Assembly: GCA_044360305.1 (NCBI GenBank)
Contig: JBIKKQ010000003.1
Coordinates: 1-60,447 of the forward strand
Source of the DNA: Pirellulales bacterium
GTDB lineage: Bacteria; Planctomycetota; Planctomycetia; Pirellulales; UBA1268
Direction: 5' to 3'
DNA length: 60,447 bases
Shown: positions 36,934 through 42,583 of the stretch, piece after piece
Position numbering within the stretch: the stretch's first letter is position 1
Layout: every line of letters begins with the position of its first letter
Program-made: the position numbers and the translations under genes
The notes under the pieces: model-generated
What the model was told of the DNA's origin: nothing
Databases searched by the model: none
Seen by the model: the letters and a program-made list of their open reading frames with translations, nothing else

Positions 36934-37006
36934 CAGGGGCGGCGGGGATCGAACTCGCAACCTCTGGTTTTGGAGACCAGCGCTCTGCCAGTTGAGCTAC
37001 GCCCCT
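36934..37006 (-). tRNA. tRNA-Trp (CCA)
   Basis: AGGGGCGTAGCTCAACTGGCAGAGCGCTGGTCTCCAAAACCAG...GTTCGATCCCCGCCGCCCCTG cloverleaf. Confidence 0.95.
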
Positions 37007-37094
37007 GTGGCGCCGGGGCCCCGCGAACGGGAAACCCCTCAGCCGAACGACCTGTGTGTATGACCTGCCGAATCCACCTCGTGCCCCGTGGGGG

Positions 37095-38294
37095 TCAGTC
37101 CAGGATCTTGGTGACGACCCCGGACCCGACCGTCTTGCCCCCCTCGCGGATGGCGAACCGGACGCCGTCGTCCATGGCGATCGGCACCATTAGCTCGACC
37201 TCCATCTTGACGTTGTCGCCGGGAGACACCATTTCCACGCCGCTGAGCAGCTTCGTGGAGCCGGTGACGTCGGTGGTGCGGAAGTAGAACTGCGGCCGGT
37301 AGCCGGCGAAGAACGGCGTGTGACGCCCGCCCTCCTCCTTCGACAGCACGTACACCTCGCACTCGAACTTCTTGTGGGGCTTGATCGAGCCCGGCTTGGC
37401 CAGCACCTGGCCGCGCTCGATTCCCTCGCGGGCGATGCCACGGAGCAGACAGCCGACGTTGTCGCCGGCCTGCCCCCTGTCGAGCAGTTTCTTGAACATC
37501 TCAACGCCCGTCACGGTGGTCTTCTCGGCCTTTTCCTTGAGGCCGATGATCTCCACTTCGTCGCCCACCTTCACCTCGCCCCGCTCGATACGCCCCGTGG
37601 CCACGGTGCCGCGGCCTTCGATCGAGAACACGTCTTCGATCGCCATCAGGAAGGGCTTGTCGAGCTCGCGAACCGGCTCGGGGATGTAACTGTCCACCGC
37701 CGCCAGCAGGTCGGCGATGCACTTGTTCTTCGCCGGATCGGCCGGACTGTCGTAGGCCGGCTTGCCCGCACCGCGGATGATCGGCACGTCGTCGCCAGGG
37801 AAGCCGTACTTCGTCAGCAGTTCGCGGATCTCCATCTCGACGAGGTCGAGCAGTTCCGGATCGTCGACGAGATCGACCTTGTTGAGAAACACGACCAGCG
37901 CCGGCACGCCGACCTGCTTGGCCAGCAGGATGTGCTCGCGGGTCTGCGGCATCGGGCCGTCGGCGGCGCTGACCACGAGAATCGCCCCGTCCATCTGGGC
38001 GGCACCCGTGATCATGTTCTTGATGAAGTCGGCGTGACCCGGGCAGTCGATGTGGGCGTAGTGCCGCTTGTCGGTCTCGTATTCGACGTGGCTGACCGCG
38101 ATCGTGACGGTCTTCGTCTCGTCGCGGACGGTGCCACCCTTGGCGATGTCGGCATAGCTCTTGGCGACGGCCAGATTCTTGGCCGCCTGCACGGCGACGA
38201 GCGCACCGGTGAGGGTGGTCTTCCCGTGGTCGATATGCCCGATGGTTCCGACGTTGACGTGCGGCTTGCTCCGCGTGAACGTGTCCTTGGCCAT
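37095..38294 (-). CDS. tuf: Elongation factor Tu
   Basis: [31 protein letters not shown]. Confidence 0.99.
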
Positions 38295-38420
38295 GCTCTC
38301 TCCTGTTTGCTCCTCGGAAGTGAAAAAACGAACTGGTTGCTCGTCGTCTGGATCGCTCGTCGTTGCTGCCCGGTGGGGCGTTATCCTACTCGACCCGCGG
38401 CCCGGTCGGGCACGCGGAAG

Positions 38421-38493
<73 letters not shown>

Positions 38494-38632
38494 GGGTTGC
38501 CTGCGGTGGCAGCGGCCATGGGGTGTGCGTGGGGGGTGTCCGGGGGTGTGTGGTTGATGACTGGGTGGTACGCGGGGAACGTCTGGATGCGGTCGGTTCA
38601 GTGCCTGCGGTGCGGGTGCGGTCGGGCCTCGA

Positions 38633-38703
38633 AGCGGGTGAAGGGAATCGAACCCTCGTCTTTAGCTTGGAAGGCTATTGCTCTACCATTGAGCTACACC
38701 CGC
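38633..38703 (-). tRNA. tRNA-Gly (TCC)
   Basis: GCGGGTGTAGCTCAATGGTAGAGCAATAGCCTTCCAAGCTA...GGTTCGATTCCCTTCACCCGCT. Confidence 0.96.
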
Positions 38704-38780
38704 GATCTCGCGAAGCGGTCCCGTCGGCCATGGCACGGAGTGCCCCATGCTTCGGCAAACGGGCCGGGCAGGGATGAGAC

Positions 38781-38862
38781 TGGGGAGTGCAGGATTCGAA
38801 CCTGCGAAGGCATAGCCATCAGATTTACAGTCTGACCCCTTTGACCGCTCGGGAAACTCCCC
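38781..38862 (-). tRNA. tRNA-Tyr (GTA)
   Basis: GGGGAGTTTCCCGAGCGGTCAAAGGGGTCAGACTGTAAATCTGA, long variable arm, GGTTCGAATCCTGCACTCCCCA. Confidence 0.96.
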
Positions 38863-38962
38863 TGGTGATGTGGTGCGTGCTCCTGTCTGGATCGGTTGTG
38901 CGGATGATCGCGGACTCCGGCCCGGCCGCGCGACGCCGGCCCGGGGCCGCGTCGTCATGCTG

Positions 38963-39035
38963 AGCTAGCGGCGGGAGTTGAACCCGCAACCTGCTGATTA
39001 CAAATCAGCTGCTCTGCCAATTGAGCTACGCTAGC
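38963..39035 (-). tRNA. tRNA-Thr (TGT)
   Basis: GCTAGCGTAGCTCAATTGGCAGAGCAGCTGATTTGTAATCAGC...GGTTCAACTCCCGCCGCTAGCT. Confidence 0.96.
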
Positions 39036-41262: not shown

Positions 41263-41733
41263 TCAGGCGTGGGCGACTCCATTGCCGCCCGCGCGGGACG
41301 ATCCATTGATTCCGATGGCATGCCGGTGCGTGTTGACCGGCACTCCGAGCGCCGGCAGGCCGCGACCGAGCAGGAACAGATCGACGTCGATGCAGGTCGA
41401 AAACGTCTTCAGCAGGCTGCCGGTGACGGTGTCGACGTGCAGGATGGCCCCGCGCAGCTCGACGCCCGTGCTGCGCCGGACGTGGTTGACGAGCGAGTCG
41501 AGGGCGTGGTCGAACAGGTAGTGGTGAAAGTCGCTGACGCGGCGGCAGCCCCCCTCATCCACCGCCAGCCGGCGTTCGGCGGCCGTGAACGGCTCGTGGA
41601 TGTTCATCACGAGTCGGCCGCCGTCGGCGACCACGGTGACGCTCGCGGGGGCGCGGCCGAGGAGCAGGTGCTCGAAGGTTCCGGCGGCGTGCGCCACCTG
41701 CCTGGCGAGGCGTCGATCAGCTGGTTTCGACAT
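41263..41733 (-). CDS. Divergent DUF2294 (MpsC-like) protein
   Basis: LGRAPASVTVV...FTAAERRLA...TGVELR...VDTVTG aligns with the DUF2294 pattern GRGP / LTxAE / TGV / STxTGE. Confidence 0.7.
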   Translation of the reverse strand: MSKPADRRLARQVAHAAGTFEHLLLGRAPASVTVVADGGRLVMNIHEPFTAAERRLAVDEGGCRRVSDFHHYLFDHALDSLVNHVRRSTGVELRGAILHVDTVTGSLLKTFSTCIDVDLFLLGRGLPALGVPVNTHRHAIGINGSSRAGGNGVAHA

Positions 41734-41761
41734 GTATTCCCGCGGTCCCCGCGTTCCGTAC

Positions 41762-41818
41762 AAAAACAAAAAAAGCCGGCGGGAAAGAAGGCCCGAAGGC
41801 GTTCTCTCTCGCCGGCTT
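41762..41818 (-). terminator. Intrinsic terminator in the 5' leader of the DUF2294-csrA-DUF2294 operon (attenuator)
   Basis: Minus strand AAGCCGGCGAGAGAGAAC-GCC-TTCG-GGC-CTTCTTTCCCGCCGGCTTTTTTTGTTTTT: long stem, cUUCGg tetraloop, U-tract ending ~30 nt before ATG 41733. Confidence 0.85.
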
Positions 41819-42140
41819 ACGCTGCGACGGACCCTCCGGCCGTGCCGGACTGCCCCTCGTCTCGTCTTCCGTATGGTGTGGCATCCGGACCGCGTTGCGG
41901 ACCGGACATTCGCTCGGCCGCGGGGCGAAAAAATCGCCTCACGTCCTCGCGACGTCACGGATTGTAGTGGGGAATATGGGAAACACAAGCAGCATTTGCG
42001 GATTGCGTAATTTGCGTGGACGAAGTGTCGCTTGCCGCCGATGCGACACTCTGTTTCGTCCCGTTCATCGCGCACGATCGCTGCGACCGGAAACTTGGTC
42101 GCCCTGATTCGCCGTGCCGCGCGGCGTTGCCGAACAGACA

Positions 42141-42170
42141 ACAGACCCCCACTGTGGTGGGGTTTGTTTT
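42141..42170 (+). terminator. Terminator-like hairpin upstream of the rightward DUF2294 gene
   Basis: ACAGACCCC...GGGGTTTGT stem followed by TTT, 27 nt before ATG 42197. Confidence 0.4.
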
Positions 42171-42196
42171 GGCGTCGCGTCTGCGAGGTGTCGGCG

Positions 42197-42583
42197 ATGA
42201 AGTCCCAGGGGGAGATCGAGGCTGCGGTGTGCGACGCCGTGTCGCGTTTTCAGCAGGAATACATGGGCCGCGGGCCGCGCCATGTGCACACGCATCTCGT
42301 CGAGAACCGGCTCTTCGTCCACCTTCAGGGCGTGCTCACGGCGGCGGAGCAGCGGCTGATCGAGGGGCGAGGCAACGGCGATGGGCGGGGGATCGAACTG
42401 CTCAAGCAGTTGCGCAGTCAGCTGGTGCAGGCCGGACAGGCGCTGCTGGAGACGCTGGTGTGCGAGGCGGCCGGTTCGGCGCCGATCAGCGTCCACCACG
42501 ACATCAGTCCGGCCACCGGCGAGGAGGTGCTCGTCCTGACGCTCGCGGCCCGCCCCCCGTGCCGCGAGCGGCGTGGCCGGTGA
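42197..42583 (+). CDS. DUF2294 (MpsC-like) protein, paralog of 40451-40942
   Basis: MKSQGEIEAAVCDAVSRFQQEYMGRGP...LQGVLTAAE...HHDISPATGEE; GAGGTG RBS. Confidence 0.88.
   Translation: MKSQGEIEAAVCDAVSRFQQEYMGRGPRHVHTHLVENRLFVHLQGVLTAAEQRLIEGRGNGDGRGIELLKQLRSQLVQAGQALLETLVCEAAGSAPISVHHDISPATGEEVLVLTLAARPPCRERRGR

Follow-up and report, generated by a model that had tools for sequence, protein, structure and literature searches.

A multicopy leader RNA with a covarying sensor hairpin and an embedded terminator upstream of a DUF2294–csrA operon in Pirellulales: a candidate attenuator or riboswitch

Introduction

In riboswitches of the pbuE adenine type, a covarying sensor stands directly before a terminator, the basal helix of the sensor shares its letters with the terminator 5′ arm, the two folds exclude each other, and the whole lies between promoter and start codon. 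A leader RNA with this layout is predicted on the minus strand of a 60,447-nt stretch of DNA from a Pirellulales bacterium (GenBank assembly GCA_044360305.1, contig JBIKKQ010000003.1, positions 1 to 60,447), called the window below, where it precedes an operon encoding a DUF2294 (MpsC) protein and a CsrA paralogue. It differs from the pbuE type in that its sensor is a rod of four short helices with purine-rich loops instead of a junction, and in that the terminator sequence itself is conserved.

Other described systems share some of its traits. The c-di-GMP-I (GEMM) and ydaO riboswitches likewise occur in many copies and in tandem, with surface, signalling and stress genes downstream; however, their Rfam models do not match the element, and its genes lean to general stress (CsbD, YflT, BON, HSP20, HPF, Dps-like). 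The nhaA-I (Li+) and DUF1646 (Na+) riboswitches also consist of a hairpin with conserved internal loops followed by a terminator, and a nominal link exists in that Pfam places MpsC under a Na+-translocating system, but again there is no Rfam match, and the genes behind the element are mostly not transporters (one P-type ATPase among the 105 listed). As in the protein-dependent attenuators RAT with LicT/BglG and trp with TRAP and anti-TRAP, an imperfect hairpin overlaps the terminator 5′ arm and candidate regulators are encoded in the operon that the element leads. Unlike in those systems, no PRD-type antiterminator or TRAP gene was seen adjoining the element, and we know of no CsrA paralogue or DUF2294 protein acting as a RAT- or TRAP-like attenuator protein. 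Finally, the element resembles the Csr/Rsm RNAs in its conserved GGA, which one of the two folds leaves unpaired, and in its linkage to csrA. In contrast to these RNAs, the element has one conserved GGA, which is not in a hairpin loop of the consensus fold, and its position points to termination rather than to a Shine–Dalgarno sequence.

Full-text literature searches gave no description of the motif; a supplementary table of such surveys may list it. The 'yjbJ motif' appears in the available text of PMC11109978 as a Streptococcus-only motif, and a term search did not find our motif in the available text of PMC8632094. The word 'planctomycetes' occurs nowhere in the accessible part of PMC5737381 and once in that of PMC2864571, and a term search of the text of a 2025 review (PMC12673574) found none of riboswitch, small RNA, sRNA, CsrA or stress response. 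Judged by its sequence and predicted folds, the element is an attenuator/riboswitch-type leader that lies outside every family tested and for which no published description was found.

A conserved RNA element in the leader of the DUF2294–csrA operon

The leader can be divided into a putative promoter, a variable 5′ extension and a conserved element, with the following parts (all on the minus strand).

41961-41988, minus: putative sigma-70-like promoter, TTGTGT (41988-41983) and TACAAT (41966-41961) with a 16-nt spacer
41876-41954, minus: variable 5′ extension of about 80 nt, sequence not conserved
41758-41875, minus: conserved RNA element, sensor hairpin plus embedded terminator (covariance-model match, 130.5 bits)
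41813-41871, minus: sensor hairpin P0 to P4 (from the RNAalifold consensus, the pair counts and the truncated fold of the window sequence)
41871-41869 with 41815-41813, minus: P0, CGG with CCG
between P0 and P1: 3x3 purine loop, AAG/AAG
41865-41863 with 41821-41819, minus: P1, ACG with CGU
41859-41857 with 41827-41825, minus: P2
41855-41852 with 41832-41829, minus: P3
41849-41844 with 41840-41835, minus: P4, the small hairpin UCCGGC-ACG-GCCGGA with loop ACG
41768-41818, minus: predicted intrinsic terminator with outer stem AAGCCGGCG/CGCCGGCUU, inner stem, UUCG-tipped hairpin and U7
41818-41810, minus: terminator 5′ arm AAGCCGGCG
41800-41791, minus: terminator tip GCC-UUCG-GGC
41781-41773, minus: terminator 3′ arm CGCCGGCUU
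41774-41768, minus: U7 tract
41872-41868 and 41759-41755, minus: ACGGA motifs

The CCG at 41815-41813 is common to the terminator 5′ arm and P0, and the ATG at 41733 lies 34 nt from the last U. Transcription is predicted to start near 41954. A box pair CTTGCGTT ... TATAAT is present at the same place in relatives from the genus, and the leader length of about 200 nt depends on this presumed promoter, itself conserved in relatives. The 5′ extension is predicted to form a local hairpin around GGCGAUUUUUUCGCC, and the stretches upstream of the conserved unit differ among relatives.

A preliminary description of the locus had listed the terminator, the small hairpin and the two ACGGA motifs, all of which are present on the minus strand, and had noted that no gene ends upstream of the leader, the neighbour being divergent; the latter is confirmed by a DUF2294/MpsC gene at 42197-42583 on the plus strand. 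The internal loops in the terminator stem explain why a simple terminator scan misses it. The predicted fold of the 230-nt leader reaches −118.5 kcal/mol, compared with −94.2 ± 4.3 kcal/mol for 200 shuffles, none of which was as good; with this z of −5.7 the leader folds far better than shuffled sequence and the observation of a structured leader is thereby confirmed. Of the ~200-nt leader, conservation is confined to the 3′ ~115 nt. Contigs from RNA libraries (two runs of one study, with shares of 0.17 and 0.05, and two further runs) include none over the element, a result that is neutral on expression. We rejected a 55-amino acid open reading frame (ORF) at 41717-41884 (minus) as coding, since the helices covary and the loops differ in length by numbers that are not multiples of three.

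Structure and covariation

In the RNAalifold consensus of 19 copies, an unpaired 5′ strand is followed by a hairpin with four short helices and then by a terminator that directly abuts it. The covariance model was built from the alignment of these 19 copies. A model-free MAFFT/RNAalifold pass on 19 sequences found double changes in 13 of 35 pairs. For the pair counts we used the 95 matches obtained in the order Pirellulales, which represent 83 distinct rows and include one reverse-strand terminator match. Across these rows pairing is possible in 94.9% of cells and 29 of the 35 pairs show changes on both sides; not one of 500 shuffles reached any of five pairing measures, and sliding the 3′ partners by 1-3 columns lowered pairing to 27-48%. 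The terminator helices are 92-96% paired and covary, and the U tract is nearly invariant, with U at columns 115-121 in 67-80 of 82 copies. A G+C-rich stem-loop and a U run, which define an intrinsic (Rho-independent) terminator, are thus both present, and termination is predicted.

Letter conservation is strongest at the base of the sensor hairpin (5′ strand UCGGAUGACU, 3′ strand AGUAAGCCGAC), while P2 to P4 covary freely. Ten unpaired purines (A8, G10, A14, A21, A26, G48, G53, A57, A64 and A65), each found in 67-81 of 82 copies, form the pattern of a putative folded pocket. At columns 6-8 a GGA is conserved, with G6 in 82, G7 in 81 and A8 in 75 of 82 copies. The A of a second GGA (G45 G46 A47) is found in 44 of 82, and the P4 loop is variable and contains no GGA. 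With a single conserved GGA the element does not fit the CsrB/RsmZ type, which has many such motifs, mostly in loops.

A model of the sensor alone had 35 strong forward matches in five genomes. Thirty-four of these are also matches of the full model; the terminator of the 35th, seen by eye, differs in its longer tip. As all 35 carry a terminator, sensor and terminator form one unit. One weak sensor copy (34.7 bits; L259 428-495, plus strand, in G177:C9) is without a terminator, and its P0 partner is altered. About 45 nt on comes a purine-rich stretch with an ATG, so that the copy may either have decayed or be a translational variant. This sole case is too little to claim a terminator-less translational variant.

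Predicted competition between P0 and the terminator

P0 pairs a 5′ UCGG with the CCGA that opens the terminator 5′ arm, and a 3x3 purine-rich loop separates it from P1. The helix can form in 79-83 of the 83 rows (UA 71 plus UG 8; CG 77 plus UG 6; GC 83; GC 81), and its 14 one-sided changes are all G-U compatible. When the RNAs are cut before the terminator 3′ arm, P0 is present in 74 of 83 predicted folds, and the truncated window sequence folds as P0 to P4. Full-length RNAs are predicted to form the terminator in 79 of 83 cases and P0 in 1 of 83. In these folding models P0 and the terminator are mutually exclusive folds sharing CCGA, the layout of an ON-type attenuator.

The preliminary description had proposed another antiterminator, in which the 5′ arm of P4 pairs with the terminator 5′ arm. 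This alternative can pair in 71.8% of cells, a value reached by 498 of 500 shuffles, and one of its pairs is broken in 13 of the 81 lettered rows where P4 covaries. It was dropped in favour of P0.

Distribution and copy number

In a plain DNA search with the leader, its last ~110 nt matched 18 of the 24 genomes searched within the genus, that of the window aside, and none of the 16 searched from other families; the matches to relatives begin at about query position 119. With the covariance model, matches were obtained in 55 of 68 genomes of the genus (25 of the 30 high-quality genomes), in 76 of 151 genomes of the order, representing 54 of its 95 sampled genera (by hand count, 53 of the genomes reach E 1e-10 or better), and in 7 of 150 genomes in a spread sample of the rest of the phylum. 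An exact two-motif pattern occurs at at least 130 places in public planctomycete genome records; by the titles given by submitters, the matches listed belong to Pirellulales, Thermoguttaceae, Planctomycetaceae, Gemmataceae, Isosphaeraceae, Phycisphaerae and Tepidisphaeraceae, with a few other labels. Orthologous loci in different genera and families carry the element, and compensatory changes are seen among them.

A genome may hold up to about 14 copies, some of them in tandem (for example G024:C88 418-535 and 540-660, or G130 1492320 and 1492502). The genome of the window has three, at C87:41758-41875 (130.5 bits), C21:6215-6331 (60.1 bits) and C160:2663-2777 (44.4 bits). On the minus strand, the C21 copy has behind it an ORF without a Pfam match, of 391 or 314 amino acids depending on the start, and the C160 copy precedes a PEP-CTERM protein.

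Searches with Rfam 15 gave no family match. In the region 41600-42300 of the window at E up to 10, the best results were unrelated families at 9-20 bits, compared with cut-offs of 41-60; over the whole window at gathering level there were five tRNAs and nothing else; and over six loci with at least 13 canonical copies, at E up to 1, a single stray miRNA match on the opposite strand. The element is not a member of the T-box, c-di-GMP-I/II, ydaO, nhaA-I, DUF1646, ykkC or raiA families. Together with the covarying homologs, these searches support the proposal, made when the locus was first described, of an undescribed structured cis-located RNA with a terminator before the DUF2294–csrA operon. 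Control of this operon would fit the position of the element, which is not specific to the operon but a multicopy leader of many genes.

Predicted promoters and downstream genes

The order-level matches and the pattern-scan matches listed amount to 177 distinct copies. A promoter-like pair (TTGNNN-N16-18-TANNNT within 170 nt upstream) precedes 107 of 174 of the copies listed, versus 16.2 expected from shuffles, and a stricter pattern precedes 50, versus 1.0 expected. The −10 box ends ~10-13 nt or ~32-70 nt before the element, and 85 nt before it in the window.

Among the 177 copies listed, 105 have a Pfam-confirmed ORF on the same strand starting within 250 nt, and the gene start follows the U tract at a median distance of 48 nt (quartiles 28 and 85). 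For the 72 without such an ORF, we tested the longest nearby convergent ORF and confirmed 1 of 61. In half of the cases the gap cannot accommodate another promoter, and the genes behind it must be read through the terminator. With a covarying sensor that keeps unpaired letters, predicted exclusive folds that share letters with this sensor, and a location in predicted 5′ leaders, the element has several of the features expected of a transcriptional ON riboswitch.

The commonest gene behind the 105 listed copies is MpsC/DUF2294 (32), followed by CsbD and Ice-binding-like proteins (5 each), CsrA as first gene and glycosyltransferases (4 each), and YflT, BON, HSP20, transglycosylase-associated (GlsB-type) proteins and response regulators (3 each). 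Two cases each were found of ECF sigma factors, PAS histidine kinases, DUF3309, PRC-barrel, DUF2934, Fasciclin, phosphoketolase and AMP-binding proteins, and single cases of HSP70, a ferritin/Dps-like protein, a hibernation factor (Ribosomal_S30AE), STAS, KaiC, G6PD and a fatty-acid desaturase. Within the genus, DUF892, giant DUF11 surface proteins and a PEP-CTERM protein were found in addition. We take these families, also from their Pfam descriptions, to be a stress/stationary-phase and cell-surface set with its own regulators. Directly behind some copies (L259 213-296, plus strand; also upstream of copies in L076 and L113) there are ORFs of about 28 amino acids in which a hydrophobic stretch leads into a Gly run and then YYWSRGR. 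Their sequence suggests tiny membrane stress peptides of one family, which may be DUF3309-like.

A proposed model for regulation by the leader RNA

Effector-dependent antitermination is the best reading of the leader, the nature of the effector being a candidate assignment only. We consider it likely that the element is a cis-acting attenuator that works by competition between P0 and the terminator. Each copy would be transcribed from its own sigma-70-like promoter, and the nascent RNA would first fold into the rod-like sensor hairpin P0-P1-P2-P3-P4, whose basal P0 (UCGG; CGG in the window) takes up the CCGA (CCG) that begins the terminator 5′ arm. By default, the emerging terminator 3′ arm would displace the short P0 and transcription would stop ~35-50 nt before the start codon, leaving the gene OFF. 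An effector acting on P0, the 3x3 purine loop and P1, the most conserved part, would keep P0 closed, and read-through would turn the gene ON. The copies would jointly define a regulon of the operon of type B DUF2294 (see below) and csrA and of many stress/stationary-phase type genes. The analysis shows conservation, covariation, copy number, position, orientation and, in silico, the two exclusive folds; transcription start, termination, control of read-through and the effector are the parts of this model that we infer.

As candidate effector class we tentatively propose a small signalling molecule or an ion, which would make the element a new ON-type attenuator and a true riboswitch. This choice is favoured by the pocket-like conservation, the P1-type switching helix, the many and tandem copies and the broad regulon with signalling genes. 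Several observations weigh against it or against the model as a whole. No pair of P0 shows a change on both sides, and the helix is supported by conservation and wobble pairs; double changes are absent since its letters hardly vary. In the window P0 has only 3 bp. The order-level alignment was fitted to the covariance model and thereby favours the structure of that model. Among aptamers, junctions and pseudoknots are more common shapes than a rod of internal loops. The letters of P0 and of both terminator arms are almost invariant, and recognition by a protein beyond mere pairing is possible. The conserved 5′ GGA coexists with a csrA paralogue in the operon behind the best-scoring copies, and the presence of the element follows that of DUF2294 from genome to genome, as would be expected of a protein partner just as much as of a flagship regulated gene.

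DUF2294 and CsrA as possible effectors

The operon behind the window copy consists of three genes.

41733-41263, minus: DUF2294/MpsC of type B, first gene after the leader, 156 amino acids (Pfam PF10057, E 4.2e-07)
41217-40945, minus: csrA paralogue, second gene, 90 amino acids (Pfam PF02599, E 8.1e-17)
40942-40451, minus: second DUF2294/MpsC, type A-like (PF10057, E 1e-29 in two stretches), starting 2 nt past the end of csrA

The two MpsC stretches of the type A-like protein are separated by an insertion of ~40 residues rich in Gly, Asn, Asp and Ala, and the csrA paralogues found behind the element in this genus have C-terminal tails rich in Asn-Gly or Gly repeats. The DUF2294 proteins of these loci fall into types A and B, which have no mutual phmmer match at E 1e-5. 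The gene that follows the element is of type B; the divergent neighbour is of type A, and so, in the genus, is the third gene of the operon.

The same attenuator might thus respond to a protein of the operon, the CsrA paralogue or DUF2294, in which case the operon would be autoregulated and the other copies would be the regulon of that protein. We regard this as possible but rather doubtful. In one version, the CsrA paralogue would bind the single-stranded 5′ GGA, block P0 and promote termination, with DUF2294 as its sensor or antagonist; in the other, DUF2294 would clamp the sensor hairpin and prevent termination. GGA is the kind of motif bound by CsrA proteins, and the two versions resemble, respectively, TRAP on the trp leader and LicT/BglG on RAT.

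Genomic association argues for such a protein. In each genome of the genus the best-scoring copy precedes a type B DUF2294–csrA operon, and in many genera type B behind the element is followed by a csrA paralogue, often abutting or overlapping; DUF2294 is the commonest downstream gene, and type A is often divergent, like a regulator gene. DUF2294 was found in 56 of the 151 genomes of the order. A hand count over these genomes, with the element at E 1e-10 or better, gave 45 with both element and DUF2294, 8 with the element only, 11 with DUF2294 only and 87 with neither; kin being not independent, the table carries no statistic. The 11 genomes with DUF2294 only have a single high-scoring DUF2294 match each, taken as type A from its score. 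Three of the eight with the element only are under 90% complete, and the other five are of high quality with weak element matches (E 1e-12 to 1e-15). This pattern with its exceptions suggests that the element travels with the type B DUF2294–csrA operon. Nevertheless, 8 of 53 element genomes are without a DUF2294 match. CsrA is present in all 151 genomes irrespective of the element, so its presence or absence is useless as a discriminator. With 2-17 matches per genome the CsrA paralogue set of the order is unusually large, which also speaks for a CsrA effector.

The RNA itself can be read both ways. The near-invariance of G6-G7-A8, of P0 and of the terminator arms suggests sequence-specific reading, but with one conserved GGA, and the A of the second in about half of the copies, a two-site CsrA clamp would be weakly founded. 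The conserved GGA is moreover paired once P0 forms, and the long covarying P2-P4 rod with its loop purines exceeds what a CsrA site usually needs. DUF2294 has no recognisable RNA-binding fold. Its predicted structure (predicted local distance difference test, pLDDT, 88.7) had no Foldseek match in the PDB at E 0.001 or better (best 0.029, YslB), its best score in a wide VIA-align search was a Z of 7.0, within noise, and a sequence search of the PDB gave nothing below E 0.79. Complex prediction for type B DUF2294 (residues 1-130) and a dimer of CsrA (residues 1-62) scored 0.00, which is neutral on binding.

Less probable alternatives: a trans-acting RNA or a passive repeat

It is improbable that the terminated transcripts of ~125-210 nt act in trans as small RNAs of one multicopy family that share hairpin and terminator as a 3′ scaffold, titrating CsrA paralogues or base-pairing through their variable 5′ parts, and that their position before genes is secondary. 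Such RNAs would account for strong promoters of their own and strong terminators, for the variable 5′ and conserved 3′ parts seen in the genus, for multiple and tandem copies, and for the conserved GGA next to a csrA paralogue. However, 105 confirmed downstream genes are co-oriented with the copies listed and one is convergent, and in half of the cases the gap of 8-50 nt between U tract and start codon could not hold a promoter of its own. Where the strict promoter pattern is matched, the −10 box ends 4-13 nt before the element in 13 of 50 copies, so that no variable 5′ 'seed' would be present, and one conserved GGA is far from the many in CsrB/RsmZ-type sponges. A trans role of the terminated RNAs may coexist with either kind of effector.

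A passive promoter-proximal hairpin with a constitutive terminator, or a mobile intergenic repeat without sensing, would fit the high copy number and the near-identical terminator arms but is very improbable. Conservation extends to orthologous loci in different genera and families and comes with compensatory changes. In contrast to mobile or REP-like repeats, the copies keep a strict orientation (105 co-oriented versus 1 convergent among the copies listed) and a strict distance to the genes behind them, and matches occur in 54 of 95 genera. Genes with a constitutive terminator 8-50 nt ahead of the start codon would be silent, both of the mutually exclusive folds are conserved, and the downstream gene set is coherent.

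Neighbouring genes

The surroundings of the operon contain the following further features.

42197-42583, plus: divergent DUF2294/MpsC of type A (Pfam E 1.1e-27)
41989-42196, plus: leader of the type A gene
42147-42172, plus: CCCC-loop-GGGG hairpin in this leader, ~25 nt before the ATG
40329-39145, minus: response-regulator receiver fused to a SpoIIE/PP2C phosphatase, 121 nt past the operon
36934-39035, minus: cluster of five tRNA genes (Rfam tRNA, 59-75 bits)

The spacer between the divergent DUF2294 genes is 463 nt long, and by coordinates the divergent type A arrangement recurs in other genomes. The type A gene has its own ~200-nt leader, which contains no copy of the element and is spanned by an RNA-library contig (41989-42287). 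The hairpin in this leader is found at the same place in 9 of 10 aligned upstream regions (the window and nine relatives) with changed loop letters, and no constant U tract was seen in these ten regions. The genes downstream of the element at other loci include STAS and sigma-factor genes; together with the receiver-PP2C gene near the operon, this hints at a partner-switching module in the same circuit.

Implications for planctomycete biology

If the proposed effector class is correct, planctomycetes might switch a general-stress and surface regulon after transcription initiation by means of one phylum-wide leader RNA, a new riboswitch class. We offer this as a speculative possibility. The regulon would comprise CsbD, BON, YflT, HSP20, HPF, Dps-like proteins, sigma factors, two-component and surface proteins, and its control would not lie, or not only, with an alternative sigma factor. 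The signal would be an unnamed stress second messenger or ion, and the DUF2294–CsrA operon would belong to the same circuit, pointing to the function of DUF2294.

The question of ligand or protein is directly testable with an RNA of ~70 nt. If true, the element would represent a widespread orphan riboswitch/attenuator class in a phylum with almost nothing known on RNA-based regulation, and it would delimit a stress regulon by sequence alone. Genetic tools for planctomycetes are reported in PMC4910669, and as a compact and portable terminator switch the element could serve in such tools. It would also offer a handle on the function of DUF2294/MpsC-type proteins and on the abundance of CsrA paralogues in these bacteria.

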